Part shown: piece by piece, positions 21,757 to 50,700 of the stretch
Numbering within the stretch: the first letter of the stretch is position 1
Layout: every line of letters begins with the position of its first letter
Source of the DNA: an uncultured Bacilli bacterium
Lineage (GTDB): Bacteria > Bacillota_I > Bacilli_A > RF39 > UBA660
Assembly (NCBI GenBank): GCA_934155185.1
Contig: CAKPGT010000003.1
Span: 30,970-94,969, forward strand
Length of the DNA: 64,000 nt
Direction: 5' to 3'
Made by a program: the position numbers and the translations under genes
The notes under the pieces: model-generated
The model's input: only the letters and a program-made list of their open reading frames with translations
The model's database searches: none
What the model was told of the DNA's origin: nothing

Positions 21757-23103
21757 ATGGCAGAATTAAAAGTTTTAAATCAAAAAATTTCTTATTTTAA
21801 AATAGAAGATGAAGATTATATTTCTATTACAGATATGCTTAAATCTAAAGATGGTGATTTCTTCGTATCTGATTGGTTGAGAAATAGAAATACTATCGAA
21901 TTTTTAGGTATTTGGGAAGAAATTCATAATCCTAATTTTAATTATGGCGAATTCGCCATAATTAAAAGTCAAGCAGGTTTAAATAGTTATAAAATTAGTG
22001 TTAAAGAATGGGTAGAAAAAACAAATGCAATTGGTATAATGTCAAAAGCAGGAAGATATGGTGGAACTTATGCCCATAAAGATATCGCTTTTGAATTTGG
22101 TATGTGGATTAGTCCAAAGTTTAAATTATTACTTATTAAAGAATTTGAAAGACTAAAAGCAGAAGAGCAAAAACAACTTGGCTGGAATGCAAAACGTGAA
22201 CTTTCAAAGATTAATTACAGAATACATACTGATGCAATAAAACAGAATTTAATACCTAATGAGTTAACAAAAGAACAAATTAATTATGTATATGCTGAAG
22301 AAGCTGATGTTTTAAATATGGCTCTATTTGGTATGACTGCTAAAGAATGGAGAAATAAAAATAAGAATCTAGATGGTAACATTAGAGATCATGCAACTAT
22401 AAATGAATTAATATGTTTAGCAAATTTAGAAAATCTTAATTCGGTATTTATAAATGATGGATTAAATCAATCTAAAAGACTTGTTAGACTTAATAAAATA
22501 GCAATATCTCAAATGAAAATTTTAAATGATAGCGATGTAAAGTATTTAAAAGGAGATGAAATGAATGAAAATTATGTAATAATTCATGGTAGTTTTGGTT
22601 CAAATGAAGGTAATTGGTTCCCTTGGTTAAAAGAACAGCTAGAGACAAAAGGAAAACAAGTTTTTGTTCCACAAATGCCAGTTGGTGTAGGAAATCAAAA
22701 CTTTGAAAATTGGTCTAATGTATTAAATCAATTAGATATAAATGAAAATGCAGTTATTATAGCTCATAGCATAGCACCTATATTTGTATGTAAATATCTA
22801 ATAACGAATCAGATAAAAGTAAAGAAGTTAATATTTGTATGTGGTTTTAACAATTATTTAGGGATTGATTCTGATTTTGATGCTGTTAATAAACCGATGT
22901 TTATTAATAACTATGCAGATGTAAAACTATATTGTAAAGATATAGTTTGTTATTATTCTGACAATGATCCATATGTTAAATATGATGTTGAAAAAGAATT
23001 TGCTGACAAACTTACTGATAAACAGTATGTTATAAAAAATGGTGGGCATATAAATGCAGAAACCGGTTATACAAAGTTTGAAGAAATTTTGAAGGAGATA
23101 TAA
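21757..23103 (+). CDS. KilA-N domain protein fused in frame to a YdeN/RBBP9-like alpha/beta serine hydrolase
   Basis: The N-terminal 140 aa match the KilA-N family (ISITDMLKSKDG..WLRNRNTIEFLGIWE..AGRYGGTYAHKDIAFEFGMWISP). The C-terminal 180 aa carry IIHGSFGS and AHSIAP (GxSxG-like). An internal SD AGGAG plus ATG lies at 22551/22561. Confidence 0.75.
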   Translation: MAELKVLNQKISYFKIEDEDYISITDMLKSKDGDFFVSDWLRNRNTIEFLGIWEEIHNPNFNYGEFAIIKSQAGLNSYKISVKEWVEKTNAIGIMSKAGRYGGTYAHKDIAFEFGMWISPKFKLLLIKEFERLKAEEQKQLGWNAKRELSKINYRIHTDAIKQNLIPNELTKEQINYVYAEEADVLNMALFGMTAKEWRNKNKNLDGNIRDHATINELICLANLENLNSVFINDGLNQSKRLVRLNKIAISQMKILNDSDVKYLKGDEMNENYVIIHGSFGSNEGNWFPWLKEQLETKGKQVFVPQMPVGVGNQNFENWSNVLNQLDINENAVIIAHSIAPIFVCKYLITNQIKVKKLIFVCGFNNYLGIDSDFDAVNKPMFINNYADVKLYCKDIVCYYSDNDPYVKYDVEKEFADKLTDKQYVIKNGGHINAETGYTKFEEILKEI

Positions 23104-23105
23104 TA

Positions 23106-23777
23106 GTGGATATTACTAAAAGTTCCTTTGATAAAAGACAATCTGTTCAAAAAAATTATGATTTGATAGCAGAACAATATAGTAATGAATTTGGAACTTA
23201 TATTGAAGATTTAGATGTATATGAAAAATTTGAACAACATCTAGTTGAAAACGCTAAAATTTTAGATTTAGGTGCAGGCTCTGTAAGAACATATTCTTAT
23301 TTTAATAAACAAAATTATGAGTATATAGGTTTAGATTTTTCAAAAAAAATGAAAGATTGTGCATATAATTTACATGGGGAATTTCCATATATTGTAGACG
23401 ATATGGTTAATGTAAAAAAGTATTTTTCTAATAATTCATTAGATGCTGTTTTTGCTGTTTATTCTCTATTTCATTTACCTAAGAATGATTTTAATAATTT
23501 ATTTTCAGATGTATATGATATTTTAAAAGTTAATGGTTTATTTTTATTTACATACCAAATAGGTCAAGGTAAAGATATGGCAGATGAACCATATTTAAAT
23601 GAAAAAGGTAAAAACTCATTATATATGTGCTATCATACAAATGAAGAAATAAATGATTTACTTCATTCTTTTTCATATACAGAATTATTTAAAAAGCAAA
23701 AAATAGAAATATCTCCTTCAGCTATTAACAGTAATAGTGTTACAACTGTCTTTATACTGGCTAAAAAGATTAAATGA
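23106..23777 (+). CDS. class I SAM-dependent methyltransferase
   Basis: Motif I ILDLGAGSVR, an acidic loop GLDFS, and a motif post-II region. Confidence 0.8.
   Translation: MDITKSSFDKRQSVQKNYDLIAEQYSNEFGTYIEDLDVYEKFEQHLVENAKILDLGAGSVRTYSYFNKQNYEYIGLDFSKKMKDCAYNLHGEFPYIVDDMVNVKKYFSNNSLDAVFAVYSLFHLPKNDFNNLFSDVYDILKVNGLFLFTYQIGQGKDMADEPYLNEKGKNSLYMCYHTNEEINDLLHSFSYTELFKKQKIEISPSAINSNSVTTVFILAKKIK
23297..23351 (+). repeat. 54-bp direct repeat, copy 2 (inside the methyltransferase CDS)
   Basis: See copy 1 at 21689..21742. Confidence 0.85.
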
Positions 23778-24134: not shown

Positions 24135-25154
24135 ATGCTAGAAAATAACGATAAATATTTTGAAGTATTAAATGATATTAAGAAAACTTTAATTGTTACT
24201 AGAAATAAAATAGTTGAAAACGCAAATAAAGATTTAGTTTTAATGTATTATAATATCGGTTTAAAGTTAATTGAAAATAATAAATGGGGTTCATCTTTTA
24301 TTGATACATTAGCAAAGGATTTAAAAATTGAATTTCCTACATTAAAAGGTATGTCTGCAAGAAATTTGAGATATATGCAAAAGTTTGCAACAGAATTTGA
24401 TAATGATGAATTTTTGCAACATCATGTTGCAAAATTACCTTGGTCTTCTATAACAACTATAATGGATCAAGTCAAAGATAAAGGGCAAAGAAATTGGTAT
24501 ATTACGGAAGCTATTCAAAATGGTTGGGCTAGACCTGTTATAGTTCATCAAATTGCAAGTAAGTTATATGAAAGACAAGCATTATTAGAAAATAAAACTA
24601 CTAATTTTGATGAAACCTTACCATCTCCAAATAATGAGCAAGCAAAAGAGTTATTAAAAAATCCATATATATTTGACTTTATAACTGCTGATAAAGATTT
24701 AAAAGAATTAGATATTGAAAGAGAACTGACTGCTAATATAACTAAGTTATTATTAGAGTTAGGAAATGGTTTTGCATTTGTCGGAAGACAATATCATTTG
24801 GAAATAGAAAATGAAGATTACTATATTGATTTGTTGTTCTATAATTTAAAAGTAAGAAGTTATGTTGTAATAGAATTAAAGACAACTGAATTTAAACCGG
24901 AATATGCAGGTAAACTTAATTTCTATTTGAGTGCAGTAGATAAATATATTAAAGATGAAAATGATAATCCTACATTTGGAATATTACTTTGCAAAGATAA
25001 AAAAAGAGTAACTGCTGAATTAGCATTAAAAGATATTAATAAACCTATCGGTGTAAGTGAATATAAAATTTTGTCAGAGATACCTGAGTTTTTAGAAAAT
25101 ACTCTTCCAAGTATCGAAGATATAGAAAAGAGATTGGAGGAAGATTCTGAATGA
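24135..25154 (+). CDS. DUF1016 / YhcG-like PD-(D/E)XK nuclease, paralogue 1
   Basis: Family hallmarks: NLRYMQKFA, LPWSSI, ELGNGFAFVGRQY, YYIDLLFYN and VVIELK (D...E-x-K core). Confidence 0.85.
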   Translation: MLENNDKYFEVLNDIKKTLIVTRNKIVENANKDLVLMYYNIGLKLIENNKWGSSFIDTLAKDLKIEFPTLKGMSARNLRYMQKFATEFDNDEFLQHHVAKLPWSSITTIMDQVKDKGQRNWYITEAIQNGWARPVIVHQIASKLYERQALLENKTTNFDETLPSPNNEQAKELLKNPYIFDFITADKDLKELDIERELTANITKLLLELGNGFAFVGRQYHLEIENEDYYIDLLFYNLKVRSYVVIELKTTEFKPEYAGKLNFYLSAVDKYIKDENDNPTFGILLCKDKKRVTAELALKDINKPIGVSEYKILSEIPEFLENTLPSIEDIEKRLEEDSE

Positions 25155-27973: not shown

Positions 27974-28534
27974 ATGTGGAAATATTCTAAAAAACTTCAG
28001 TATCCAATAAACATAAGAAACAAGAATTTAAAGATGGCTAAAACGGTTATTAGCCAGTATGGTGGAGCTCAAGGTGAATTAGGTGCAGCATTAAGATATT
28101 TAAATCAAAGATATACTATGCCAGATGCAAAGGGTAGGGCTTTATTAAACGATATTGGAACTGAAGAACTTGCTCACGTCGAGATGATATGTACAATGGT
28201 ATATCAAATGATGAAAGGTGCAACTCCAAAAGAATTAGAAGAAGCTGGCTTATCAGCTCACTATACAGAACATGGTTTAGCATTATTCCCAAGTGATGCT
28301 AATGGTAATGCATGGACAGCTAATTACATATCTACGACTGGAGATCCTATAGCGGACTTAGAGGAGGATTTAGCTGCAGAACAAAAAGCTCGTGCAGTAT
28401 ATGAAAACTTAATAAATCAAACTAATGACCCCGATATACTAGGACCACTTCTTTGGCTTAGACAAAGGGAAGTAGTTCATTATAACAGATTTAAAGAACT
28501 ATCTGATGAGTATAAGAAAAAAGGATACAATTAA
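27974..28534 (+). CDS. cotJC: spore coat protein CotJC (manganese catalase family)
   Basis: YGGAQGELGAALRYLNQRY, TEELAHVEM and AAEQKARAVYE di-metal ligand helices. Confidence 0.9.
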   Translation: MWKYSKKLQYPINIRNKNLKMAKTVISQYGGAQGELGAALRYLNQRYTMPDAKGRALLNDIGTEELAHVEMICTMVYQMMKGATPKELEEAGLSAHYTEHGLALFPSDANGNAWTANYISTTGDPIADLEEDLAAEQKARAVYENLINQTNDPDILGPLLWLRQREVVHYNRFKELSDEYKKKGYN

Positions 28535-28547
28535 TAAATAATTAATC

Positions 28548-28576
28548 GCTTACGAATATTCGTAAGCTCTTTTTTT
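28548..28576 (+). terminator. perfect 20-nt palindrome GCTTACGAATATTCGTAAGC plus T-run (cotJ operon terminator); copy 1 of a 25-bp repeat
   Basis: 10-bp arms followed by TCTTTTTTT. The 25-mer AATCGCTTACGAATATTCGTAAGCT recurs exactly at 30726..30750. Confidence 0.8.
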
Positions 28577-28789
28577 AAGAATGCTAATAAATTAATTATG
28601 TAGCTATTAAATTGCCATAACAATATTTATTATGATGTTATAGTAATTTAAAATAACTGGACACAATAAAGGCAAAATATTAGTTATAGGAAAGCTTACA
28701 TTGAATAAGAACTTATGTGTAGCATGCAAAACTTGAAAAGCAAAGAAAAACGTGTATAATATTAATACAAGTTTATAAAAGGAGAACCT

Positions 28790-30709
28790 ATGAATAAATA
28801 TAATTATGATATTAAAAGAATTAATTCTGTGGAGGAAATATTGGATGGTAAAAAACTATTAATTAAAGAATTCATTAACATGGATTTGTCTAATTTGGAT
28901 TTGAGTATAATTCCTAAAGAGGCTTTTGAAAACTGCTTTTTTTATAATACAAACTTTAAAAATACAGGTATTAAATTTATTCCAAATAAATTAGCACCTG
29001 CAACAGAAAAGCAAATGGAGCTTTTCCAATTACCATGGCAATACAAATACAAGAATTCTATTTATTTTTGTAATTTTAGTGACAATGATTTAACATATTT
29101 GAGTCACGAAGATTTTTTACTTGGGGAGAAGCCTAAAAGAAATAACGAGTATTTTGAGGTTGCAACGATGGGTTGTGACTTTACAAATACAGGAATAAAT
29201 TTTTTAAATACATTAATTAATGTTAAGCTTGATTCTTCATATCAAAATTATGATTTTAACGACAAATTTTGGAAGTTTAATGGTGGATTGCTTCATTGGC
29301 CTGATTTTATAGATATTAACACAATTTTAATGAATCCATTTTTAAATGTACCTTCTTTTAGATTTCTTATTGCTATTAGATATTATATAGGTGATGTTGA
29401 ATTATTACTATATTCTGATACTCTTAGATCTAGAGTATCAAGTGATCCAAAAATGATGAAAAAAATTGTAGAAAAATGTGAAAGCTTTTTAGAATATGAT
29501 AAACAAGGATATGGCAAAAAACTTTATAATAAATTATCCCCATTTATGGATTTATATGCAAAAATCAGGTTTTTTGGAGCTTTTAGCATATGCAATTTGA
29601 ATCTTAAAAATATAGATTTTGAAGATATTCCAACAGAAGTTTTACGATTTTATGAAATACAGAATAATAATTTTGAAAATATAACTTTTAATTATACAAT
29701 TAATGATTTATTAAAGATTCCAGGCGGACCAAGTCATTTTTTGGATACAATTAGTGGTTATGAAAATAAATACAAGGATTTGTTTATTACTAAAATAAAT
29801 TATAATAGTTGGCAAGAAAATCCAAATGCTGTAAAAAGAGTATCAGAAAGTGCTATTACTTTTTTTACGAAAGTATATGTAGAACTAAATAGAATATGTA
29901 ACGCTAAGTGTACTTTTTGCAGAAACGAAACATTTAATAAGAGTAAGTATGATTTAAATAAAATAATAGATACTTTAGACTCGATTAAGAATTACATCAA
30001 TGCTATAGTAATAGGCGGTGGGGAGCCTACACTTAGATTAGATGATGTAAAGAAGCTTCATGATAGCATTATCAATAATGACTTAGATTGGCATTTATTT
30101 ACTAATGGAAGTAATCCTTCTATCATAAAAGATGATTATATAATGGATAATTTTAGGCTTAATTTAAGCAGGCATGCTGTTAATGACAATGAAAACGCTA
30201 AAATATTTAATATGGATAGTAATAAGATTATGACTACCCATGAAATAGAAAAACTAAATTGTAGGAATGAAGAAGTAACATTAAATGCTGTTTGCTTTAA
30301 AGGCGGATTAGATAGTTTTGATAAAATAATAGAATATATAAAATACGCAAGGGAAATTGGTTGTAAAAAAGTATTAATTCAAGATTTACAAAGAGAGTTA
30401 TCTTTAGGTAATAATTATATAAATAATGATATATGTATAGACGCTGTTATTTTACCTAGGGTAAGAGAGTATTTAAAAAGTATTGGTTATAAAGAAAAGT
30501 ATCCAATTTATGCAACTGGTGGCTATGTATCTTATGTATTAGAAAAAGATGGATTTTCTATTTCATTACAAAAATATATTACCCAAAGCGAGTTAGATGA
30601 AAACTGGGTTAAGTCTATAAAAAGAGCATTCGATTTATCAGTAGATCCAAGTGGCAATTTATATGAAAATTGGAATCAAAAAGATGGTAGGGTAAAGATT
30701 AAAAAATAA
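28790..30709 (+). CDS. pentapeptide-repeat-like N-terminal region fused to a radical SAM domain
   Basis: CX3CX2C cluster motif CNAKCTFC (29897..29920) followed by GGGEPTL. The N-terminal ~350 aa have loose pentapeptide-like units (LSNLDLSIIP, FCNFSDNDLT, GCDFTNTGINF, ICNLNLKNIDF). Confidence 0.75.
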   Translation: MNKYNYDIKRINSVEEILDGKKLLIKEFINMDLSNLDLSIIPKEAFENCFFYNTNFKNTGIKFIPNKLAPATEKQMELFQLPWQYKYKNSIYFCNFSDNDLTYLSHEDFLLGEKPKRNNEYFEVATMGCDFTNTGINFLNTLINVKLDSSYQNYDFNDKFWKFNGGLLHWPDFIDINTILMNPFLNVPSFRFLIAIRYYIGDVELLLYSDTLRSRVSSDPKMMKKIVEKCESFLEYDKQGYGKKLYNKLSPFMDLYAKIRFFGAFSICNLNLKNIDFEDIPTEVLRFYEIQNNNFENITFNYTINDLLKIPGGPSHFLDTISGYENKYKDLFITKINYNSWQENPNAVKRVSESAITFFTKVYVELNRICNAKCTFCRNETFNKSKYDLNKIIDTLDSIKNYINAIVIGGGEPTLRLDDVKKLHDSIINNDLDWHLFTNGSNPSIIKDDYIMDNFRLNLSRHAVNDNENAKIFNMDSNKIMTTHEIEKLNCRNEEVTLNAVCFKGGLDSFDKIIEYIKYAREIGCKKVLIQDLQRELSLGNNYINNDICIDAVILPRVREYLKSIGYKEKYPIYATGGYVSYVLEKDGFSISLQKYITQSELDENWVKSIKRAFDLSVDPSGNLYENWNQKDGRVKIKK

Positions 30710-30729
30710 TATAAAAATATATTAAAATC

Positions 30730-30755
30730 GCTTACGAATATTCGTAAGCTTTTTA
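30730..30755. terminator. second exact copy of the GCTTACGAATATTCGTAAGC palindrome (bidirectional terminator)
   Basis: Identical 20-nt palindrome followed by TTTTTA. It lies between the radical SAM gene (+) and the convergent 30753..31196 gene (-). Confidence 0.75.
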
Positions 30756-31196
30756 TATTGTATGCTTTTTGAAATCTAAATCATAGTTTACATTTTCTAT
30801 TTCGCCACTGTTAGCTAAATCCTCTATAATTTTCTTATTATCTATAATTGGATCTTGAAGTACGTAAGAAAAATGATAAACAGTATAATTATTTAGGTCC
30901 TTAAAATTGTATGAAGAAATAGGGTTAATATCTAAAGCTAAGCTAATATCCTTTACTAATTTGTTAACAATATCATTATCAATACTATTTTCGGCTATAA
31001 CAGTTAATGAACCATTTTGCTTTTGAAAACAAATGCTTAGGTATCCATTTACATTTTCTTTATTTATACTTTTTATATTAACTTCATAATTTTCATATTC
31101 GCAAGTTTTTATAGAAACTTCATATTCATCTTGCAAAGCTCTAAATATTTTTGCAAAAGAACTTATGTAGGACTTTTCATAATTAGCATTTAACAT
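30753..31196 (-). CDS. hypothetical protein
   Basis: 147-aa ORF with no recognisable motif. Confidence 0.45.
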   Translation of the reverse strand: MLNANYEKSYISSFAKIFRALQDEYEVSIKTCEYENYEVNIKSINKENVNGYLSICFQKQNGSLTVIAENSIDNDIVNKLVKDISLALDINPISSYNFKDLNNYTVYHFSYVLQDPIIDNKKIIEDLANSGEIENVNYDLDFKKHTI

Positions 31197-31257: not shown

Positions 31258-32691
31258 TTAATATTGCTTAGCCCAGTAAATCTTTGTTTTTGCATCTTTA
31301 CCACAGCATACACATTTTTTATCGCCATCAGGTTCAGCACCTTCAAAAGGCATACATCTAGATTTTAGCCCGAGTTCATCTTTTATTTTGTTTTCGCATG
31401 AAACATCACCGCACCAATTACTATATATAAATCCAGGCTTACTTGCTGTTTCTTTCATTTCATCCCAAGAAGATACGTTATATAGCATAGCATTTCTTCT
31501 CTTTAATGCTCTTTGATACATATCATTTTGTATATTTACTAATAGTTCACTTATCTTAATTGAAGCTTCATTAATAGATATATCTTCTTTTTCTAATGTA
31601 TCTCGTCTTACTATAGTAACAGTATTATTTGATAGACCACGTTTTCCTATTTCAATTCTAATAGGGTATCCCTTTACTTCAGCTTCAGCAAACTTAAATC
31701 CAGGAGTTTTATCCTTATTATCTATTTTATAGGTTATACTTAAATCTTTTAGTTCATTAGAAATTTTATCTACCACATTATTAACCTCATCATCATTTCC
31801 AATAGGTATTATAACTACTTTATAAGGTGCAATTCTAGGTGGAAGAACAAGCCCTCTATCATCACCATGAACCATTATTATTTCACCAATCATTCTAGTT
31901 GTACTACCCCAAGATGTTTGGTAAGGAGTTTCTAATTTATTTTCTTTATTTAAAAACTTTATATCAAATGCCCTTGCAAAACCTTGCCCAAAATAATGTG
32001 ACGTAGCGCTTTGAAGAGCAACCCCATCATACATCATAGCTTCAATAGAGTATGTATCTTCTGCACCAGCAAATTTTTCCTTATCGGTCTTTTTTCCTGT
32101 AAAAACAGGTACAGCTAATACGTTTCTTTGAAAATCTTCATATACTTTAAGCATTCTAAGTGTTTCATTAACGGCTTCTTCTTTACTAGCATGCATTGTA
32201 TGACCTTCTTGCCAAAGTATTTCTCTAGTTCTTAAAAAAGGCCTTGTAGTTTTTTCCCATCTAACTATTGTACACCACTGATTATATAAAAGTGGTAAGT
32301 CCCTATAAGAATTAATTATTTTTTTAAAATGTTCACAAAACAATGTCTCAGAAGTAGGCCTAATACACATTTTTTCTTCTAATTTATTTGAGCCACCTTG
32401 CGTAACCCAGGCTACTTCAGGCGCAAATCCTTCTACATGATCTTTTTCTACTTGTAAAAGGCTTTCTGGTATAAAGGCTGGCATTCTTAGGTTTTCATGC
32501 CCTGTTTCTTTAAACTTTTTATCCATTATACTTTGTATATTTTCCCAAATAGCATATCCATAAGGTCTTATTATCATACTTCCTTTTACTGATGAGTAAT
32601 CTACTAAATCAGCTTTTTTACAAACATCTGTATACCACTGTGCAAAGTTAGTATCACGACTTGTTATTTCTTTTACTTGTTTATCATTCAT
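31258..32691 (-). CDS. proS: proline--tRNA ligase (archaeal/eukaryote-like type)
   Basis: Class II motifs (IRPTSET, FRTREILWQEGH, GxGxGxxR-like region) and a C-terminal Zn-binding-type tail ending WAKQY. Start is at ATG 32691 (MNDKQV), after SD AAGGA. Confidence 0.95.
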   Translation of the reverse strand: MNDKQVKEITSRDTNFAQWYTDVCKKADLVDYSSVKGSMIIRPYGYAIWENIQSIMDKKFKETGHENLRMPAFIPESLLQVEKDHVEGFAPEVAWVTQGGSNKLEEKMCIRPTSETLFCEHFKKIINSYRDLPLLYNQWCTIVRWEKTTRPFLRTREILWQEGHTMHASKEEAVNETLRMLKVYEDFQRNVLAVPVFTGKKTDKEKFAGAEDTYSIEAMMYDGVALQSATSHYFGQGFARAFDIKFLNKENKLETPYQTSWGSTTRMIGEIIMVHGDDRGLVLPPRIAPYKVVIIPIGNDDEVNNVVDKISNELKDLSITYKIDNKDKTPGFKFAEAEVKGYPIRIEIGKRGLSNNTVTIVRRDTLEKEDISINEASIKISELLVNIQNDMYQRALKRRNAMLYNVSSWDEMKETASKPGFIYSNWCGDVSCENKIKDELGLKSRCMPFEGAEPDGDKKCVCCGKDAKTKIYWAKQY

Positions 32692-32704
32692 ATAAAACAC
32701 ATCC

Positions 32705-34128: not shown

Positions 34129-35502
34129 TTGACTAGATTAACGGTTAAAGATTTAATTGATGTATCTCATGCCAAATTAGTAAGTGGAAATTTACTAGAT
34201 GAAATAGGAGAGTGCTTTATAGATAGTAGTAAGGTTAATAATGGTGGTTGCTTTTTTGGTATTAAGGGTTGTAATACGGATGGCTCACTATTTTATAAAG
34301 AAGCTTTTTTAAATGGTGCTAGTGTATGTGTTATAAATGAGAAAATAGAGTTTGATATAAATGATTTTAAAGATAAAACTCTTCTAACGGTTAAAGATAC
34401 TAAAGAATCATTACAGCTTTTAGCTAAAAGAAAAAGAGATTTATTTAAAGGTACTGTAGTTGCTATAACAGGTAGCGTTGGTAAAACATCGACTAAGGAA
34501 ATGATATATAATATATTAAATAAAAAATATAAAGTTTTAAAAACGATAGGTAATCAAAATAGTCAGCTTGGACTACCACTTACTATATTAAGATTAAAAG
34601 ATGAAGAAGTTATGGTACTTGAAATGGGAATGAATGATTTAGGACAGATAGAAAAGTTATCACTTATAGCAAGACCAGATATTTCAGTTATAACAAACAT
34701 ATATGATTCACATATAGGTATTTTAGGCTCTAGAGAAAATATACTAAAGGCTAAACTTGAGATAGTGCGTGGCATGAAAAAGGGCTATTTAATAGTTAAT
34801 AATGATAATGATATGCTTTATAATTTAGAACTTAAAAATAAAAATATAGATATTATAACCTATGGTATTAAAAATAGTTCAAACTATATGGCTTATAATG
34901 TTAAAGAAGATGATATAGTTACGTTTGATACAAAAGATATTAAAGATATAAAAATAAGGGAAGGAGTGCCATTTGTCTATAACGCACTAGCTTCTATTAT
35001 AGTAGGGAAAATGCTTTTGGTTACAAATGAATTGATTAAAGATGGTATAAATGATAGAAGAAGTGTAAGCCATAGACTAGAGGATATTAAGATAAATAAT
35101 TATTTAATAATTGATGATACATATAATGCCAGCTATGAGTCTTTAAAAGTAGCATTAAATTATATGAGTAAGATAAATGGAAGAAAAGTAGTTATTTTAG
35201 GTGATATTTTAGAACTAGGCGAGGATTCTATAAGTATACATAAAAAAATAGGAAAATTATTACTAGATTATAATATTGATTATTTGATAACAATAGGAAG
35301 CTACTCTAAATATATAGACTCAAGCATTATAGATAATGGATTTAATAAAGATAATGTAAAACATTTTGATAATGAACTTAATTCGAGAAAGTTTATTAAA
35401 GATTTAATAAAAGAAAATGAAGTGGTTTTAATAAAAGGTTCGAACAGTACTAATTTAGTAAACATAATAAATTATTTAAAAAAGAAGGATTTAAGATTTT
35501 AG
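34129..35502 (+). CDS. murF: UDP-N-acetylmuramoyl-tripeptide--D-alanyl-D-alanine ligase
   Basis: Mur ligase P-loop ITGSVGKTSTKE, plus VLEMGMN, DTYNAS and GDILELG motifs. Start is TTG 34129, after SD AGGTGA. Confidence 0.9.
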   Translation: MTRLTVKDLIDVSHAKLVSGNLLDEIGECFIDSSKVNNGGCFFGIKGCNTDGSLFYKEAFLNGASVCVINEKIEFDINDFKDKTLLTVKDTKESLQLLAKRKRDLFKGTVVAITGSVGKTSTKEMIYNILNKKYKVLKTIGNQNSQLGLPLTILRLKDEEVMVLEMGMNDLGQIEKLSLIARPDISVITNIYDSHIGILGSRENILKAKLEIVRGMKKGYLIVNNDNDMLYNLELKNKNIDIITYGIKNSSNYMAYNVKEDDIVTFDTKDIKDIKIREGVPFVYNALASIIVGKMLLVTNELIKDGINDRRSVSHRLEDIKINNYLIIDDTYNASYESLKVALNYMSKINGRKVVILGDILELGEDSISIHKKIGKLLLDYNIDYLITIGSYSKYIDSSIIDNGFNKDNVKHFDNELNSRKFIKDLIKENEVVLIKGSNSTNLVNIINYLKKKDLRF

Positions 35503-36204
35503 TCCTTCTTTTAACATGTCTTCTAATTTTTTACATCTTTCTTTATCCATGCTAGGAGTACCCTTTAATGGATAACAAATTCCTAGCTCTTCATACTTAT
35601 GAACTCCTAAGGTATGGTATGGTAAAAGCTCTATTTTTTCTACATTTTTAAGAGGTTTAATAAAATAAATTAGTTCATTTATATATTCTTTGGTATCATT
35701 TATTCCTGGTACAATAACAACTCTAATCCAGAGCTTTTTATCTAATTTTTCACATTGCCTTAAGAATAATAGTGAATTTTTAATATCAAACCCAGTCATA
35801 TTTTTATAGTTTTCCTGATTAGTTCCTTTTATGTCAAATAAGACGAGATCAGTATATTTTAAAACCTCTTCACAGTTAGGTATGCTGCCTGCAGTATCTA
35901 AGCATGTGTGAATATCATTTTTTTTGCATAGTTTTAAACATTCAAGTAGAAAGTCTTTTTGCATTAGAGGTTCTCCGCCTGAAAATGTTACTCCACCATT
36001 ATTTTTAAAATATGGTTTATAGTTAAGAATTTTATTTATTAATTCCTCTGGTGTATAATTAGATGCTTTTCCATTCAAATCCCATGTTTCAGGATTATGG
36101 CAAAATTTACACCTAAGGGGACAGCCTTGCATAAATACAACAAATCTAACTCCTGGTCCATCAACTAATCCCATTGTTTCTATACTATTTATTTTTCCAA
36201 TCAT
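35491..36204 (-). CDS. pflA: pyruvate formate-lyase activating enzyme (radical SAM)
   Basis: IETMGLVDGPGVRFVVFMQGCPLRCKFCHNPETW and GGVTFSGGEP. Start is ATG 36204, after SD GGTGAT. The 3' end overlaps murF by 12 bp (convergent). Confidence 0.9.
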   Translation of the reverse strand: MIGKINSIETMGLVDGPGVRFVVFMQGCPLRCKFCHNPETWDLNGKASNYTPEELINKILNYKPYFKNNGGVTFSGGEPLMQKDFLLECLKLCKKNDIHTCLDTAGSIPNCEEVLKYTDLVLFDIKGTNQENYKNMTGFDIKNSLLFLRQCEKLDKKLWIRVVIVPGINDTKEYINELIYFIKPLKNVEKIELLPYHTLGVHKYEELGICYPLKGTPSMDKERCKKLEDMLKEGLKS

Positions 36205-36308
36205 ATCTATCACCATGTTAATTATATATTAAAAGCAAACAATATCCAACAATATTTTTAAAAATAATTAATATAATAGACGGTTAAACAAAAGGAGAGA
36301 TAGGTATT

Positions 36309-37199
36309 ATGAACTATTATAATGAAATAAAGGAAGAACTAGTAAATAATGAAGTATATAAAAAGGTAAAGGATTACTCTAAAAATAGAAGTGATTTAAA
36401 AACGTATTATAATGTTGGAAAGTTATTAAATGATGCTGGTAAAAAATATGGTGAGGGTATTATAAAAAAGTATTCTGATAAATTAAGCAGAGACCTAGGT
36501 AAAAAGTATAATGAAAGAACACTTAGAAGATTTAGACAATTTTATAATTTGTTTAGTGAACAAAAATGGACGACAGTGTCGACCAAATTGCTATGGAGTC
36601 ATTATGTTGAATTATTATCAATGGATGATATATGTGAAATTAATTATTACATAAAAATAGCGGAAGAAGAAAATTTATCTGTAAGAAAGTTAAGAGAGCG
36701 AATAAAAAATAATGAATATGAAAGACTAGATGACAAGACTAGGATTAAATTAAGTTCTAAGAAAAAAACGGATGCACATGATTTTATAAAAAATCCTATA
36801 CTTATAAGAAATAAATTTGATACTGATAAACTATCTGAAAAAATGTTAAAGCAAAGTGTGTTAGAAGACCTTTCACATTTTTTAAATGAATTAGGTAGTG
36901 GATATGCATTTATAAGAGAAGAATATCCAATAAAACTAGGTGATAGATATAATTATATAGATATACTTTTGTTTAATTATGTAAATAATAACTTTGCTGT
37001 AGTAGAGCTTAAAATAGGTGAAATAAAAAAAGAACATATAGGGCAGGTACAAACATATATGAATTATATTGATAAAAATTTAAAAACAATTAATCAAAAT
37101 GACACCATAGGAATTATTATCTGTAAAAAAGGTAATAGCTTTATAATGCAGTATGTTACAAACAAAAATATATACGAAAGAGAGTATGAACTAATATAA
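36309..37199 (+). CDS. DUF1016 / YhcG-like PD-(D/E)XK nuclease, paralogue 2
   Basis: TLRRFRQFY, LLWSHYVELL, ELGSGYAFIREEY, YIDILLFN and AVVELK motifs. Confidence 0.85.
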   Translation: MNYYNEIKEELVNNEVYKKVKDYSKNRSDLKTYYNVGKLLNDAGKKYGEGIIKKYSDKLSRDLGKKYNERTLRRFRQFYNLFSEQKWTTVSTKLLWSHYVELLSMDDICEINYYIKIAEEENLSVRKLRERIKNNEYERLDDKTRIKLSSKKKTDAHDFIKNPILIRNKFDTDKLSEKMLKQSVLEDLSHFLNELGSGYAFIREEYPIKLGDRYNYIDILLFNYVNNNFAVVELKIGEIKKEHIGQVQTYMNYIDKNLKTINQNDTIGIIICKKGNSFIMQYVTNKNIYEREYELI

Positions 37200-37502: not shown

Positions 37503-39737
37503 TTAACATCCTAATTTTTCGTGGAAAGTACGTGATATAACTTCCTCTTGATGAGCTCTAGATAATTTGTCAAAAAGTACAGCATAACCTGATACTCTAA
37601 TTGTTAAAGTAGGGTATTTTCCAGGATTATTCATAGCATCTATCAACATTTCACGATTTAAAACATTTACATTTAAATGATGAGCACCTTTTTCAAAATA
37701 TCCATCTAATACATTTACTAAGTTTTCTACTTGTTCTTCCTTAGTATGACCTAATGCGTTAGGAACTATAGAAAATGTATTTGAAATACCATCTTCGCAG
37801 CAGTTTGCATAAGGCATTTTTGCTACCGAGTTAAGTGATGCAAGTGCACCTGATGAATCCCTGCCATGCATTGGGTTAGCTCCTGGAGCAAAAGCAGCGC
37901 CTTTTTTTCTTCCATCAGGAGTTGAACCGGTTTTCTTACCATACATAACGTTAGAAGTAATTGTAAGCACTGATAGGGTATGTTTAGCTCCTTTATATAG
38001 TTTATGGTCACATAAATCTTTATAAAACTCTTCTAAGATTTCTTTTCCTATTAAATCAACTCTATCATCATCATTACCATATTTTGGAAATTCACCTTCT
38101 ATTTCAAAATCAACTGCTATACCATCTTCATCTCTTATAGGCTTAACTTTAGCATATTTAATTGCTGATAGTGAGTCTGTTGCAACAGAAAATCCAGCAA
38201 CGCCAAAAGCCATTAGTCTATCAACCAGAGTATCATGAAGAGCCATTTGACCTCTTTCATATGCATATTTATCATGCATATAATGGATAATATTCATAGC
38301 ATCAACATATGTTTTAGCTACCTTTTTCATAGCTTTAAAATAAGCCTTTTTAACTGTTTCATAGTCTAAATATTCATCTTCTATTTTATCTAAACCAGAT
38401 ACAACAAGTTCTTTCTTAACTTCATCTACACCACCGTTAATAGCGTATAAAAGAGTTTTGGCTAAATTACATCTAGCACCAAAAAATTGCATTTGTTTTC
38501 CAACAGTCATTGCCGAAACGCAGCATGCTATAGCATAGTCTGAGCCATGAAGAGGTCTCATAAGTTCATCTGACTCATACTGGATAGCATCTGTATCGAT
38601 TGATACTTTAGCACAGTAATTTTTAAAGTTCTGAGGTAGTTTATCACTCCATAAAACGGTAAGATTAGGCTCAGGTGCTGAACCTAAATTATATAGAGTA
38701 TGTAGGTATCTAAATGAATTTTTAGTAACAAGAGATTTTCCGCCTTCAGTCATTCCACCTATACTTTCAGTAACCCAAGTTGGATCACCTGCAAAAAGTT
38801 CATTATATTCAGGTGTTCTTAAATGTCTTGCCATTCTAAGTTTCATTATAAATTGATCTATAATTTCTTGGGCTTCAATCTCATTTAACACGCCATCTTT
38901 TAAATCTCTTTCAAAATATATATCTAAAAATGTAGATGTTCTACCTAAACTCATAGCAGCACCATTATTTTCTTTAATAGCTGCTAAATATCCAAAATAT
39001 AACCATTGAGTAGCTTCTTTAGCATTACTTGCAGGCTTTGAAATATCAAATCCATACTTTGATGCCATACTTTTCATTTCACCTAAAGCAATAATTTGTT
39101 CAGACACTTCTTCTCTTAGCCTTATCTTACTTTCTGTTAAAACTTCCTCTTCAAGTGTTAGTAAATCATTTTTCTTTTCTTCAATTAATCTATCTATTCC
39201 ATAAAGAGCAATTCTTCTATAATCTCCGATTATTCTTCCTCTTCCGTAAGCATCAGGAAGTCCAGTTAATAAACCAGCATGTCTTGCTTTTCTAATGTCA
39301 GTTGTATAAGCAGAAAACACACCATCATTATGAGTTTTTCTATATTTAAAATATTCTTCAACACTATTATCTAATTTGTATCCATATGCTTCCAAAGCTT
39401 GACGCACCATACGCATTCCACCAAAAGGATTAACTATTCTTTTTAATGGAGCATCAGTTTGAAGACCAACAATTACTTCATCTTCTTTTATTATATAGCC
39501 AGGGTTATAAGCATCTATGCCAGATACTGTTTTTGTATCAACATCATATATCCCTTTTTCTATTTCAACTTTTGCCATTTCCATATATTTATCATTTAAT
39601 CTTTTGGTCTTTAAAGTAGGGGACTGTAAGAAACTTTCATCGCCAGTATATTCTGTATAATTATCCAAAATAAACTGCTTAACGTCTATAGTATCTCTCC
39701 ATTTATCACCTTTAAAATCATGCCAATTATCATTCAT
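37503..39737 (-). CDS. pflB: formate C-acetyltransferase (pyruvate formate-lyase)
   Basis: 744 aa with active-site ACCVSAM, a glycyl-radical C-terminus TIRVSGYAV and a typical PFL N-terminus. Confidence 0.95.
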
Positions 39738-43239: not shown

Positions 43240-45216
43240 ATGAATGAGAATAATATAGGAAACACTGATGAACTTGGCTTTGAAAATGCTAATTTGGACC
43301 AAAACATAAATGAATCTGTTCAAGGAGATGTTAATATTTTAGGCGATTCTTCAATTAATACTAATTTAGACAGCACAGTAAATGATGCTAATACGCTTTC
43401 ATTAGAAAATCAGAAGTATAATGATACTTATAATGAACCACGAACTGAGTTACTCCCAGACGAAATAGGTAGAGTAAAAGATATTAGCGGTGATAAGGTA
43501 ATAGTAGGTATTACATCTGATTTAGCATATTCTAAAAATTTAGTTGATCATCATGTAGTATTTCAAGTAGAAAATGATCAGAAAATAGTTGGAACATTAA
43601 CTAGCATAAACAAGGAAACAGCAGAGATTCAACTAATTGGTGAGATAAAAGCAGATAGGTTTATAGCAGGAGTTTTAATTAAACCTCAAATTGGTAGTGT
43701 ATGTCAAATTGCAAGTGAAAACGAAACTAGTTTAATAGTAATTGATGGTAGTAATAATTCTACAAGTAAAGTCTTAGTAGGACAAATGCCTCTTTATAAT
43801 AATGCACCAGCGTATGTACCAACTAACACATTTTTCAGTAATCACTTTGCAATTTTTGGAAATACTGGTTCAGGTAAGTCTTGCGGTGTTGCAAGATTAC
43901 TTCAAAACGTATTTTTTAATACGAATCAAATTCCAAGAAATGCATGTATGTTTATATTTGATGCTTATGGTGAATACGAAAACGCATTATCTATTCAAAA
44001 TAGTAGTATATTATTTAAAAGGTATTCTACCAACGTAAGGACTAATTCAAATACGTTAATAAAGTTGCCACTTTGGCTTCTTGATATAGATGATTTTGCG
44101 TTATTACTTGATGTTGATGACCCATCGCAACTTCCAATAATAGAAAAGGCACTTAGACTAGTTACAGTATTTTCAGGACCAGAAGAAGAAACAAAGATAT
44201 ATAAAAATGATATAATTGCTAAAGCAATACTTGAGGTTTTATATTCAGGCGGTGCGGCATCACAAATACATGACCAAATATTTGCAATATTAACATCATT
44301 TAATACATCTGATCTAAACTTAGAATCTTTAATTGTACAACCGGGATATACGAGAACATTAAGACAATGCCTAATAATTGATAAAGAAGGTAAAATAGGT
44401 GAGATACAGTTAGTATCAGAATTTATAAAGAGATTTATTAATGATAATTTAAGACTAGAATTACCTGATGGAACTATACCATTTACACTTGAAAATCTAA
44501 AAGAAGCATTTGATTTTGCTTTAATATCTGAGGGTATACTAAAGAGTGATAAAATATATGATAAAGCTAATGTTTTAAAAGTAAGATTAGATTCTCTAAT
44601 AAAGAGTGAATACTCAGAATATTTTAAAGTTGATAAATATATTGACAAAGTTAATTTTATTAAGCAACTAATTACTGCGCCTAATGGTGGAAGAACACAA
44701 ATAATAAATATAAATATTAGTTACCTAGATGATAGATTAGCTAAAACTATATGTAAAATATATTCAAAATTATTGTTTGATTTTACATCTAAACTTAGAG
44801 TAAGGGGATCGTTTCCTATTCACTTAATATTAGAAGAAGCTCATCGTTATGTACAAAATGATGATGATGTAAAAATATTTGGATATAATATATTTGATAG
44901 AATTGCAAAAGAGGGAAGAAAGTATGGTGTTATACTTGGATTAATATCACAAAGACCATCTGAATTATCTGAAACTACAATGTCTCAGTGTTCTAATTTC
45001 TTAATTTTCAAAATGCAGCATCCTTATGATGTTAAGTTTATTAGGGAAATGGTGCCTTACATAACAGACGAAATAGTTGAAAAAATGAAAGGTTTGCAGC
45101 CAGGTACTTGCGTAGCCTTTGGCTCAGCATTTAAACTTCCAACTATTATAAAATTAGAAATGCCAAATCCGCAACCAATGAGTCAAAACGTTGACATATC
45201 AAGATTGTGGTATTAA
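43240..45216 (+). CDS. HerA/DUF87-type (HerA-FtsK superfamily) ATPase with Asn/Asp-rich N-terminal tail
   Basis: Barrel-like N-domain (GRVKDISGDKVIVG...), Walker A FGNTGSGKS, Walker B/sensor HLILEEAHRY and GLISQRPSELSETTMSQCSNFLIFKM. Confidence 0.8.
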   Translation: MNENNIGNTDELGFENANLDQNINESVQGDVNILGDSSINTNLDSTVNDANTLSLENQKYNDTYNEPRTELLPDEIGRVKDISGDKVIVGITSDLAYSKNLVDHHVVFQVENDQKIVGTLTSINKETAEIQLIGEIKADRFIAGVLIKPQIGSVCQIASENETSLIVIDGSNNSTSKVLVGQMPLYNNAPAYVPTNTFFSNHFAIFGNTGSGKSCGVARLLQNVFFNTNQIPRNACMFIFDAYGEYENALSIQNSSILFKRYSTNVRTNSNTLIKLPLWLLDIDDFALLLDVDDPSQLPIIEKALRLVTVFSGPEEETKIYKNDIIAKAILEVLYSGGAASQIHDQIFAILTSFNTSDLNLESLIVQPGYTRTLRQCLIIDKEGKIGEIQLVSEFIKRFINDNLRLELPDGTIPFTLENLKEAFDFALISEGILKSDKIYDKANVLKVRLDSLIKSEYSEYFKVDKYIDKVNFIKQLITAPNGGRTQIININISYLDDRLAKTICKIYSKLLFDFTSKLRVRGSFPIHLILEEAHRYVQNDDDVKIFGYNIFDRIAKEGRKYGVILGLISQRPSELSETTMSQCSNFLIFKMQHPYDVKFIREMVPYITDEIVEKMKGLQPGTCVAFGSAFKLPTIIKLEMPNPQPMSQNVDISRLWY

Positions 45217-47704: not shown

Positions 47705-50700
47705 ATGGGACTGTATAATTTAACTAGAATAGAGGGATGGTACGAAGATTTCACCGACTTAAAAAATCGATTTAACAATGACTATTATCAAGATTTTAAG
47801 AGTAGTTATTTAAGAAAGTGCCCTAATCAATTAGTGTCAAAAATGTATTTAAATTTGCAAGAAAAGTATTTTAAAATACGTGAATTGTATAAAAAAGTTG
47901 ATACAGTTTGGAGTGAATATATAGTTGATTTAGAAAACACAGATAATAGATTAGCTGGGCAAAGTGGAAGTGTTAGTGCGTCAACTGTATCGTCATTATT
48001 GTCTAAAATGCCACAACTAAATGATACTCAGTATAGCTTATCTAATTCTGGAGGCCAAAGCAAAAACGCAGTACTTGAAATTGGGGAAAAAATTCTTTCA
48101 ACGGGTGCTGTTGTTACAACTACCGTGTATAGTGGTTTATTTAAATTAAGAGAAAAATTTCAAGATGGTGCATTATGGCTTGTAGCAACTGTTACTGCTC
48201 CGGTTGTTTCATTGTTTAATAAAGAAGCTGGGGAAAAATATAAAGAAGCAATGATGGATGCAATTGCTGTAGATAGGGTTGCAGAGGCAAATAAATATTT
48301 TTATGAAAATACTAAAGTTGGAAAATACATTAATGAAAAATCTTACTTAAAGTATGATAGTGAATTTGCAAAGAAAATGCAAAATTATTCAGAAAAAGGC
48401 TTTGAAATTGCAGCAGCAACTGCATTAACCGTAGCAACTGGTGGACTTGCTGCACCTGTATCTGCTCTACTGGTTGTGGGTACTGGCTTTGCTATTGGAG
48501 CAGGTGAAAAAGCAGAGGAAAATTATCAGCAAGAAGATAGAAGTTTTTATGGGGACGCTGGTGAAATTGCATTTGCAGGTTTAATCAAAGGAATTGAATT
48601 CTATGGCACTGGAAAGACGGGACAGGGAATTATTACTGCAGCCAAAGCAGTTGCAAGTTCTGGAGGTATAAAATCTATATCTACGGTTGCAAAACAATTA
48701 TTTACTAAAAGTGGAAATAAAAAAATCACTATGAAATCACTATTTAAAAAAGCGTCAGAAACGTTAAAAACAGCTTTATCAGATGTGGATACACATATGG
48801 ATTCGCTTAGCGCAGCAGCGGATAATATAACTTATAGTAAAGAAGAGGGTATAAAGGTTAATTGGAAAGGTTTTGCAAAAAAAACTGTTAAATATTTCAT
48901 TGCCAATTGTTGTTCAGCATTTGTTAGCAATCTATATGCACCACCAAAGACAAAAGCAGATAATGGTATAGAGAAATTTAAAGGTACAAAAAGTACATCA
49001 GCTGACGATTTAGAATCATTAAAAAAAGAATATAATGAGTTACTAGCCAAATCAAAAGAAAAATGGTTTATAGATGCAAAAGATGCTATGGATAATGGCT
49101 ATGCTTGGAAGTTAGATGATATTAAATCAGCAGATGATATTGCAAAAAGAATGAATGAAATAGAAAAGGCCCTTGGCATAGATAGCCCAAAAGTTAATGT
49201 AAAAGGAATAGAATCAGGAAGTACTCATAAATCTGATTTAGAACAACTAAAAAAAGAATATAATGAGTTATTAGCTAAGTCAAAAGAAAATTGGTTTATA
49301 GATGCAAAGAATGCTATGGATAATGGCTATGCTTGGAAATTAGATGATATTAAATCAGCAGATGACATCTCAAAAAGAATGGATGAAATAGAAAGAATTT
49401 TGTATAGTGATTCAAAAAATTTGACTAGTTCAGCTTACCCTGAAGCATTTAGTAGAAAATCATTAAGTAATATGACAAATTATGAGGTACATAAGTCATT
49501 AAGTGACATGGATATTGTTATTAAAAATATAGAGTCAAAATATCCGGGTGAGGGAGTACGTCGCTTAGAAGAATATTTAAAAACTGGTAATATAAATATG
49601 ATTACATCTCTTGGTGGTTCTAGAAACTATGTAGCTCAATTTGAACCTGATTTTATTGAATATTATCTTAAAAAAAGATATAATATTGATGTAAAAGTTA
49701 GTTCATCATTCTATGATTTAAATCAAACAGTACGTAGTGGTACATTAAAAAGTAGTAGTAATGAAGAATTATATAGTTTCTTTTCAAATAACGGAAGTTC
49801 ATTAAATGAAACATATGGTGCTGATCAAGGTGGAATAGATAAGCTATGTGATTATTATTTAAATGGAACAAGGTATTCTTGCTCTGAAGCCAAGGAGATA
49901 GCGAATTCGTATAAAGAGAGAGGATTGCCTTTACCAAAATTTAAAAAAGAGGCTGCAGTAGAAGAATACTTTACATTAAAAAATAAGTTAGTTTCAAAGG
50001 GATTAACTAGTGCTCAAGCCTCTGTTATATTATCAAGTTTTGATGATGTTGGCGCGTGTACTTATGCTGGAAAAGCTAATTCAATCTTTTTTAAGTTTTC
50101 AGATAATCCAGAACTATTTGAGAAAAAATTTGGCTTTCCAATGTATAAAATAGATAGTAATGGGCGTAAGGTTCTTAATTCAAATGAACTTTTATTAGAT
50201 ATGTATATGCATATAAATGATATATCGAATGGTGGAATGTTATTTACGAAAGTTAACGATTCATATGTTTTAAATTGCAGTGATAAAATTGATGTATTTG
50301 GCAGAAAAATGCTTGATACCGAGCATCAGGTTTATCTTTCTAATTTTGGCGGTTCAAATGACTATGCTTTAAATAATTATTTAAAATCTAAAAATTTAAA
50401 GTGGGATTCTTATAATTTGATTTCAAATCCTTCTGGTAAAAAATTAAACACGTCGGAATTAGTTGACTACGTTAATGCAATCTCTTCCAGTATTGAAGAT
50501 GGAAAGGCAGTACAAATGAACATCTTCTCTTCTGACAATAATATTACCATGCATTCAACAAATCCGGGTTCCTATAGTAGTAAATCAACAGATTCATGGA
50601 TAAAAGAAATAGTAAATGAAAATGGCAAAATTGAAAAGAAACACAGTGGTCATGCAGTAATGATTACCGGAATAAAAAATGATGGTTTTACAGTTAGTTC

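Follow-up and report, generated by a model that had tools for sequence, protein, structure and literature searches.

A strain-specific cassette carrying a radical SAM gene with a pentapeptide-like N-terminal module at an intrinsic terminator of a gut Bacilli species

Background

Radical S-adenosylmethionine (SAM) enzymes occur in several described defence systems. Viperins, including their prokaryotic forms (pVip), occur as single genes and convert CTP, UTP or GTP to the 3'-deoxy-3',4'-didehydro-NTP. Pentapeptide-repeat proteins such as Qnr, MfpA, AlbG and McbG are DNA mimics, with gyrase or other DNA-binding proteins as their targets. Two further anti-phage systems with radical SAM enzymes have several genes: Ophion is composed of OpnA, PHP and PRTase, OpnA being related to viperin yet distinct from it (10.1101/2025.09.30.679545), and HXS is composed of HxsB, HxsC, HxsD and HxsA, with two clusters in HxsB/HxsC (PMC13128918). 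We describe here a 2.2-kb, single-gene cassette found in a 64,000-nt stretch (hereafter the window) of contig CAKPGT010000003.1, from an uncultured gut Bacilli species related to Ca. Aphodocola. The 639-residue product of the gene joins an N-terminal module (hereafter the N-module) containing pentapeptide-repeat-like units to a C-terminal radical SAM domain.

None of the radical SAM defence systems that we checked in the literature (pVip, Ophion and HXS) shares this fusion architecture. With viperin and pVip (NCBIfam models NF038283 and TIGR04278; PDB entries 6Q2P, 7N7I and 9DGW) the cassette protein has in common the CxxxCxFC, GG(G)EP and TNG motifs and a beta-4 Sxx motif followed by N-x-x-I, and the cassette gene, too, stands without a conserved partner. 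However, its clade scores 27-52 bits against the pVip cutoff of 180, the protein has an N-module of 340 residues and a different C-terminal extension (KRxFDLSxDPxGxxxExW), and the gene is not found in a defence-island context. MoaA, the GTP 3',8-cyclase, is similar in its partial-barrel fold (Foldseek E-value (E) 2e-8, template modelling score (TM-score) 0.56) and gives weak profile matches, but the cassette protein lacks a second C-terminal Fe-S cysteine triad and its gene has no molybdenum-cofactor gene context. The Ophion and HXS enzymes likewise lie outside the viperin family proper, and HxsC is a weak NCBIfam match (32 bits against a cutoff of 268); those systems are multi-gene with obligatory partners, whereas the cassette gene is solitary, with one cluster in its product and no such neighbours. 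Pentapeptide-repeat proteins (Qnr, MfpA and AlbG; PF00805) resemble the N-module in its A(D/N)(L/F)xx-type units and acidic character. The repeats of the N-module, in contrast, are short and interrupted by loops and a helical insert of 90 residues, and the module, unlike these free-standing proteins, is joined to an enzyme.

Results and discussion

Insertion at a shared terminator

Sites without the cassette were located through homologues of the 147-residue protein encoded just downstream of it and the contigs that carry them. In 14 contigs, cotJC and the 147-residue gene converge directly, at a distance of 36-42 bp, and the radical SAM gene is missing. Ten of the 14 (our contig labels L048-L050, L052, L053 and L066-L070) have flanks 96-99% identical to those of the window, and at their junction a single copy of the 25-mer AATCGCTTACGAATATTCGTAAGCT joins the two flanks as known from the window. 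The other four represent a sister lineage of 77-80% nucleotide identity with a different hairpin at the site, which indicates that the empty state is ancestral. The occupied copies (L032-L034) are at least 99.9% identical to the window, so that the cassette marks one near-clonal lineage. Samples that contain the cassette are ERZ27287456, ERZ28614815 and ERR7738167. We therefore regard it as practically certain that a precise, recent and strain-specific insertion took place at the terminator common to cotJC and the 147-residue gene, and that the terminator was duplicated. The initial annotation had inferred a single-gene cassette inserted or duplicated at the cotJ terminator, and the empty sites with one 25-mer bear this out: far from being part of a conserved core genome, the gene is strain-variable and sits in another context in every relative. 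The species group of the window is also present in a Hadza human-gut sample.

In the window the 25-mer occurs exactly twice, both times on the forward strand (Table 1). The remaining matches are reverse-strand self-matches of the palindrome that it contains, and the chance expectation from 100 shuffles is 0. Identity between the two repeats reaches 28 of 29 nt and then ends in AT-rich sequence. Each copy includes the perfect 20-nt palindrome GCTTACGAATATTCGTAAGC (8-bp stem, 4-nt loop) and a T run. Both hairpins are called as intrinsic terminators, with folding energies of -11 to -12 kcal/mol and z-scores of -3.5 to -4.7, and the right-hand copy is terminator-like on both strands. Coordinates, shuffles and folding all agree with the earlier description of two identical 25-mers, each with a perfect palindrome followed by Ts.

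The palindrome is not specific to the element. A metagenome scan found the exact 20-nt sequence, flanked by A/T runs and terminator-like, in five unrelated metagenomic contigs (L043-L047) of 34-55% GC. None of these is related to the cotJC/147-residue locus, and they were ruled out as empty sites. The five stretches may reflect convergence on a favourable hairpin. Roughly 1-2 chance matches to the palindrome are estimated for a collection of that size.

An alternative is that the occupied state is the older one and that the empty sites come from repeated deletion between the direct repeats, in which case the 25-mers would not be insertion scars. Recombination or slippage between 25-bp direct repeats leaves exactly one copy, as is seen, so that a deletion would yield the same empty-site sequence, and the composition of the cassette is not foreign. 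Nevertheless, we consider repeated deletion quite improbable. The sister lineage is itself empty and carries its own hairpin, the ten same-species empty contigs are mutually different yet identical at the site, and the occupied copies form a single near-clonal lineage. In addition, the nearest homologues of the gene are at unrelated loci, and two identical terminators would still require a duplication event.

Anatomy of the cassette

Only one open reading frame (ORF) of at least 50 codons lies between the repeats, and it encodes the protein with the CNAKCTFC and GGGEPTL motifs. The segment from 28569 to 30750 comprises 2,182 bp, of which 2,157 bp are new sequence and the rest is the second 25-bp terminator copy. 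It forms an expression unit of its own: a strong sigma-A-type promoter and a Shine-Dalgarno sequence precede the one gene, and the duplication supplied the terminator. The location of the promoter and Shine-Dalgarno sequence supports the original description of one gene with its own leader. The promoter matches the sigma-70-type consensus at 11 of 12 positions and is the top site in the region. A 35-nt promoter block, spacer included, is conserved in the 70%-identical homologue of contigs L035 and L036 and is unique within the window, which argues that the promoter travels with the gene. Rfam searches of the 221-bp leader and the cassette identified no RNA family, and neither contains a small peptide ORF on the sense strand. 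At 25.4%, the GC content of the cassette, like its GC content at third codon positions, is typical of the host (27% GC); by composition the two cannot be told apart, which indicates a donor of similar composition.

The same 35-nt block (AAACTTGAAAA..AAAGAAAAACGYGTATAAT, with the spacer conserved) occurs twice in L035, at 1579-1626 and 9940-9990, where it drives the radical SAM homologue and also an unrelated 636-residue AAA-ATPase-like gene. A 78%-identical paralogue of the latter lies at 5212-7122 of L035, beside genes for a DUF2201 protein and an 856-residue unknown, in an arrangement resembling a MoxR/vWA-type island. The promoter block of L035 may be mobile or co-regulated.

Table 1. Features of the cassette and its flanks (positions in the window)
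Feature	Position	Strand	Remarks
cotJC (Mn-catalase family)	27974..28534	+	Pfam Mn_catalase, E 3.8e-57; upstream flank, outside the cassette; kept at empty sites
Left 25-bp direct repeat	28544..28568	+	cotJC terminator hairpin at 28548-28567, then T run; identical to the single copy at empty sites
5' spacer of the cassette	28569..28727	+	AT-rich, no recognisable feature; no DNA homology to relatives
Promoter block	28728..28774	+	-35 TTGAAA at 28733-28738, 16-nt spacer, -10 TATAAT at 28755-28760
Shine-Dalgarno sequence AGGAG	28780..28784	+	5 nt ahead of the ATG, read from the sequence
Radical SAM fusion gene	28790..30709	+	639 residues, two modules, rare unnamed family
N-terminal module, residues 1-344	28790..29821	+	Degenerate pentapeptide-repeat units and helical insert; acidic
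Radical SAM module, residues 345-639	29822..30706	+	CxxxCxxC (C370/C374/C377) at 29897-29920
Right 25-bp repeat	30726..30750	.	Hairpin at 30730-30749; terminator in both directions, serving the radical SAM gene and the convergent 147-residue gene
147-residue hypothetical gene	30753..31196	-	Conserved flank, outside the cassette; no Pfam match; 101 homologues; at all empty sites
Prolyl-tRNA synthetase (proS)	31258..32700	-	Conserved flank; the identical gene of L032 has Pfam tRNA-synt_2b, HGTP_anticodon and ProRS-C_1

Movement of the cassette

The single ORF of the cassette does not encode a recombinase, and no integrase or transposase gene lies in the cassette or next to it. In having one gene with promoter and terminator, precise insertion at a hairpin, direct repeats and variability among strains, the element resembles phage morons and integron-type cassettes. 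It is, however, located outside any prophage, and its repeat is a host terminator rather than an attC or att site. We rejected a transposon, an insertion sequence or an integron cassette on these grounds and because the length of the repeat differs among loci. Thus, in L010 and L024, from rabbit-gut Bacilli assemblies, distant family members are bracketed by direct repeats about 2.31 kb apart that are 190-250 bp long and 80-96% identical (positions 7624-7814 and 9933-10122 in L010; 3010-3250 and 5327-5505 in L024), as against 25 bp here. The upstream repeat of L010 starts within the final codons of secA (GSGKKYKNCCGK, then the stop codon), and L024 has remnants of the 3' end of secA on both sides of the unit, secA itself not being adjacent. 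This suggests that the repeat-flanked unit of L024 moved as a whole.

The repeats at these loci are local pieces of the target of varying length, which argues against the fixed target duplication of a transposase and for host recombination. On the sequences compared, therefore, the cassette was probably inserted by host recombination rather than by a transposase. One route would be a single crossover of a circular cassette bearing one copy of the hairpin or target; another would be the repair of a hairpin-induced break.

The radical SAM module

The C-terminal module (residues 345-639) matches Pfam Radical_SAM (PF04055) over residues 365-515 (E 2.5e-11, 44.5 bits against a cutoff of 29.5). Invariant among 65 family members are C370, C374, C377, GGGEP, N439, S460, R461, N469, C502, D508 and W628; the conserved features include GGGEPT (409-414), TNG (438-440), SRH (460-462) and the C-terminal KRxFDLSxDPxGxxxExW. 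The assignment of the C-terminal 290 or so residues to the radical SAM superfamily, initially made from two motifs, is thus upheld by a match above the cutoff and by the invariance of the cluster motif and of GGGEPT. Apart from generic Radical_SAM, the protein does not reach the threshold of any family in NCBIfam, Pfam, PADLOC or the PDB, and our literature search found no paper describing a pentapeptide/radical SAM fusion, in agreement with the first impression of an unrecognised domain combination.

Among NCBIfam models the best match is NrdG2 (TIGR02495), with 47.2 bits against a cutoff of 131; the archaeal MoaA model (36 against 325), PFLA (TIGR02493; 27.9 against 232) and the YjjW activase are also listed, and the activase matches span only the cluster-binding and GGGEP segment. 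The viperin model TIGR04278 (cutoff 450) is not among the matches, and the PADLOC pVip model gives 32.6 bits, its match being confined to residues 362-489. Stand-alone relatives of about 310 residues, and a next tier of proteins, likewise remain below all NCBIfam cutoffs, with viperin scores of at most 52 bits. The stand-alone relatives carry the clade motifs CxxxCxFCRN, GGGEP, TNG, LSRHxxDDxxN, TCxKGG and RTxDLSxxPxGxxxxDW, which argues that the catalytic unit can work without the N-module.

In comparisons with solved structures, viperins are the best matches by profile, with an E of 7e-7 for the family profile and of 6e-14 to 3e-9 over about 205 residues for the clade profile; the clade profile matches the epimerase YydG with an E of 1e-8 and MoaA with an E of 8e-7. 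Foldseek searches with the full-length model return SuiB, MoaA, CteB, SkfB, BlsE and viperin, at E 1e-8 to 1e-6 and with TM-scores of 0.53-0.66 for viperin. By these sequence and structure comparisons the radical SAM module belongs to a clade without a name that neighbours viperin and MoaA. The protein is very probably active as a radical SAM enzyme, one that represents a new clade.

Several more specific identities were considered and rejected. The protein is not a viperin or pVip: its scores are far below the thresholds and the viperin-specific motifs are replaced. Nor is it a MoaA, the scores being about 30-36 bits against cutoffs of 231-325 and C502 the sole invariant cysteine outside the SAM cluster. 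A SPASM/twitch maturase of ribosomally synthesized and post-translationally modified peptides (RiPPs) was likewise set aside, given the lack of a SPASM Pfam match in 65 members, of a small sense ORF in the cassette and of a conserved neighbour. The earlier observation that no substrate peptide or transporter gene is adjacent also holds, none being present in the cassette or conserved nearby.

The N-terminal module

Pentapeptide-repeat units occupy approximately residues 26-63, 94-104, 129-138 and 266-301 of the N-module, and the helical insert spans residues 176-264 or so. Conserved units of the A(D/N)(L/F)xx type are MDLSN, LDLSI, TNFKN, CNFSD, NDLTY and CDFTN. The window protein itself gives no Pfam pentapeptide match at E<=0.1. 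At the level of the family, PF00805 is found in 13 of 65 members (best E 1.2e-6), Pentapeptide_4 in five and Pentapeptide_3 in two; the family profile matches QnrB1 with an E of 0.004 and three more pentapeptide-repeat structures more weakly. A pentapeptide ancestry of the N-module is thus supported at the family level by sequence matches. The loose repeats noted originally in the N-terminal 350 or so residues are therefore borne out in the family, but the label is weak for the copy in the window. The first 170 residues are acidic, with a median isoelectric point of 4.9, as against 8.1 for the basic catalytic half.

The AlphaFold2 model of the N-module is confident (predicted local distance difference test (pLDDT) 88.8, predicted TM-score (pTM) 0.88), and Foldseek found nothing significant for it in BFVD, nor in the PDB a significant match to the right-handed quadrilateral beta-helix of pentapeptide-repeat proteins. 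Structural searches with the full-length model and with the N-module, along the lines proposed at the outset, gave a divided answer: the catalytic half has significant neighbours and the N-module has none. A search for the N-module in other architectures returned only its own family and fragments of it. As a whole, with its interrupted repeats and 90-residue helical insert, the module is without a described counterpart. The full-length model (pLDDT 90.5, pTM 0.86) is also confident, which argues for a fixed packing of the domains.

Family members and their neighbourhoods

A search of 5.8 billion proteins identified 73 relatives of 30-70% identity; hardly any has a name, and they nearly all match the cassette protein in length and architecture. 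With the catalytic half, an exhaustive profile-free search of 1.84 billion representatives gave 65 representatives at E<1e-30 and a further tier of stand-alone proteins of about 310-360 residues that span the whole catalytic domain. The family is found in metagenome-assembled genomes from the gut of rabbit, goat and mouse, whose labels include Bacilli, Clostridia and Lachnospiraceae among others. At 70%, 63% and 54% identity, even the nearest relatives are located in unrelated neighbourhoods, and clustering of the neighbours of 27 loci revealed no conserved partner gene. A link between the radical SAM gene and an adjacent gene of about 147 residues was also rejected, as the 148-residue neighbour in L040 is unrelated to the 147-residue ORF of the window. 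L017 carries two family paralogues in tandem (612 and 591 residues; L017:8001-11612). The accessory nature of the gene is indicated by this tandem pair, by its presence or absence at the strain level and by its patchy distribution across gut Bacillota assemblies.

The sole family member in IMG/VR (L054) is a disrupted remnant without the cluster motif, and was rejected as an instance of phage cargo. Its 400-residue ORF (L054:7566-8768), just downstream of a tRNA-like sequence, has the N-terminus of a phage Holliday-junction resolvase (phrog_843, E 9e-34) in frame with the C-terminal 250 residues of the family; the family part starts at GGGEPT and lacks CxxxCxxC. This is probably either a prophage junction that disrupts the gene or an assembly chimera. 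No matches to the stand-alone clade were found in the viral collections scanned.

A distant relative of the catalytic domain (P0073, 404 residues; L061:8001-9215), with the motif ISRHHYDD and a tail rich in Ser, Cys and Gly, is encoded in a phage-like contig. Also on that contig are genes for PhoH, dihydrofolate reductase, NAD synthase, two DNA methylases, a nucleoside deoxyribosyltransferase-like protein and Tad3 (anti-Thoeris).

Proposed function

The explanation that we favour overall, tentatively and at somewhat less than even odds, is that the gene encodes an accessory enzyme of a conflict type acting on a nucleotide-like substrate. The C-terminal module would bind a [4Fe-4S] cluster through C370, C374 and C377, and reductive cleavage of SAM would produce a 5'-deoxyadenosyl radical. 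The radical would take a hydrogen from a substrate held in a partial barrel of the viperin/MoaA type, the likeliest candidate being a phosphorylated, nucleotide-like small molecule. The clade-specific residues (SRH, C502 and the C-terminal KR...DLS...W) would set a chemistry unlike that of viperin. The acidic N-module of pentapeptide repeats and helices would pack on the barrel and probably serves in partner binding or regulation. The gene would be a horizontally exchanged accessory trait, providing anti-phage activity or immunity to a toxin or antibiotic. A conflict role is suggested only by the variability among strains, the cassette-like mobility, the tandem paralogues of L017 and the similarity to viperin. 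For the phage resistance or nucleotide-analogue production considered at the outset, the one gain is that viperins are the nearest solved relatives. Taken separately, a nucleotide-like substrate is possible on these sequence comparisons but somewhat doubtful, and a role in defence or immunity is rather unlikely.

A number of observations weigh against this reading. As regards viperin-like chemistry, the pVip model (NF038283) scores 27.2 bits against its cutoff of 180, and Foldseek places the peptide-modifying enzymes SuiB and CteB slightly above viperin. When the motifs are aligned to those of viperin structures, NYHF(S/T)R-x-CN is replaced by Y363-x-E365-L-x-R368-x-C370-N and SCDS by S460-R461-H462-A; the Arg that precedes the first Cys is retained, as is the downstream Asn. 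As regards the N-module, Foldseek found nothing significant in the PDB (best E 1.6; MfpA seventh, E 5), and the module occurs beside no other effector domain, which leaves a modular sensor role unsupported. As regards conflict, most of the 107 neighbours in 20 loci have housekeeping functions (SecA, aminoacyl-tRNA synthetases, MnmA, ClpP and ABC (ATP-binding cassette) transporters), and among them there is no enrichment of defence islands, only three isolated PADLOC candidates (one PDC-S05/RhuM, one PDC-S23 and one IetA-like). The family is also absent from the plasmids of PLSDB and from deposited phages, which gave generic radical SAM matches only.

The main rival, which we consider unlikely, is an enzyme that modifies protein and is docked by its pentapeptide module to a partner, either host gyrase, topoisomerase or polymerase or a protein of an invader, so as to confer toxin or antibiotic immunity or to inactivate the foreign protein. 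Such immunity would be like that of Qnr, with a chemical step added. The acidity of the N-module and its pentapeptide homology, including that to QnrB1, would fit such docking; a single gene with its own promoter resembles the layout of resistance genes; and the top Foldseek matches include SuiB, CteB, SkfB, anSME and the epimerase EpeE/YydG, the last of which is also found by the clade profile. Epimerases use a Cys as hydrogen-atom donor, and C502, invariant and outside the cluster motif, could be such a donor. On the other hand, the protein has neither the auxiliary-cluster cysteines of SPASM/twitch enzymes nor a peptide-recognition domain, no significant structural match to the pentapeptide fold was obtained, the stand-alone relatives keep all catalytic motifs in the absence of the N-module, and by sequence profile viperins outscore every protein-modifying enzyme. 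An accessory enzyme that modifies RNA or a metabolite (tRNA, rRNA or a cofactor precursor), gained and lost neutrally and with no part in conflict, seems improbable as well. Its appeal lies in the housekeeping, translation-rich neighbourhoods (proS in the window and in L001; alaS, metG, mnmA and secA elsewhere), the lack of a defence-island signal, the presence of RlmN among the weaker PDB matches and the host-like composition of the cassette. These small genomes, however, are dense in housekeeping genes, such that neighbours of this kind are expected by chance, and the exact neighbours differ at nearly every locus. Moreover, no RNA-binding domain was detected in the window protein or the 65 members, and a family so rare (73 clusters among 5.8 billion proteins) that is confined to one lineage of the species is atypical for RNA-modification enzymes.

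Very improbable, finally, is an activase of a glycyl-radical enzyme, or a RiPP maturase, with its partner gene at another locus. NrdG2 as best NCBIfam match, with PflA and YjjW also listed, and the RiPP maturases among the top Foldseek matches could be read in this way, as could a pyruvate formate-lyase gene 7 kb away. However, the scores quoted above are far below the cutoffs and confined to the same short segment, and no precursor peptide ORF, SPASM domain or transporter is found in the cassette or conserved nearby. The formate-lyase (37503-39737) has an activase of its own (35491-36216), both lying 5-7 kb from the cassette and both present in the cassette-free contig L048. We therefore rejected the identification as an activase, and the homology to a known activase that would have spoken against a distinct enzyme was not found. 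A more elaborate version of the accessory conflict enzyme that we favour may also be envisaged, as speculation of low probability: a new type of immune or immunity system made up of one protein, in which the acidic, DNA-mimicking N-module senses or docks on a nucleic-acid enzyme of an invader or on a host enzyme targeted by a toxin, and gates a viperin-related radical SAM domain that makes a new modified nucleotide or protein modification. Such a system would spread among gut Bacillota as a cassette of promoter, gene and terminator, capturing terminator hairpins of its hosts.

Other features of the window and of sibling strains

The window contains two genes for YhcG-type PD-(D/E)xK nucleases (DUF1016_N and YhcG_C) within 12 kb, at 24135-25154 and 36309-37199; the former matches the PADLOC candidate family PDC-S02 (E 2e-129). 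A 448-residue fusion of a KilA-N DNA-binding domain and a serine hydrolase is encoded at 21757-23103, followed by a small SAM-dependent methyltransferase at 23106-23777. A HerA/DUF87-type ATPase gene lies at 43240-45216, and a few kb further on are two very large ORFs (1,030 and 1,554 residues) within 47705-56039.

In L048 (8481-11031), and also in L049 and L050, cotJC is shortened to 112 residues and abuts a gene for a 719-residue large serine recombinase, after which come phage-like genes for a CI-type repressor, Phage_gp49_66 and an integrase. In these sibling strains a prophage or an intervening element comparable to the skin element looks to have inserted into cotJC, a spore-coat gene. 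A further large serine recombinase is encoded in L066 and L067, about 2.5 kb past cotJB.

Conclusions

The gene is best described as a member of a rare family without a curated model, in which a novel pentapeptide-derived module is fused within the radical SAM superfamily. The insertion provides a well-documented case in which a gene was gained at an intrinsic terminator and the hairpin of that terminator was duplicated. The near-identical strains with and without the 2.2-kb cassette constitute a natural isogenic comparison, and the cassette is a ready-made construct for heterologous tests. The pentapeptide-repeat module on a radical SAM domain would be the first example that we have found, and offers a handle for the discovery of substrates or partners. 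If the enzyme is active, it would represent a new radical SAM clade beside viperin, with stand-alone and fused forms and distinct active-site residues, which could yield a new radical-mediated modification of nucleotides or proteins.

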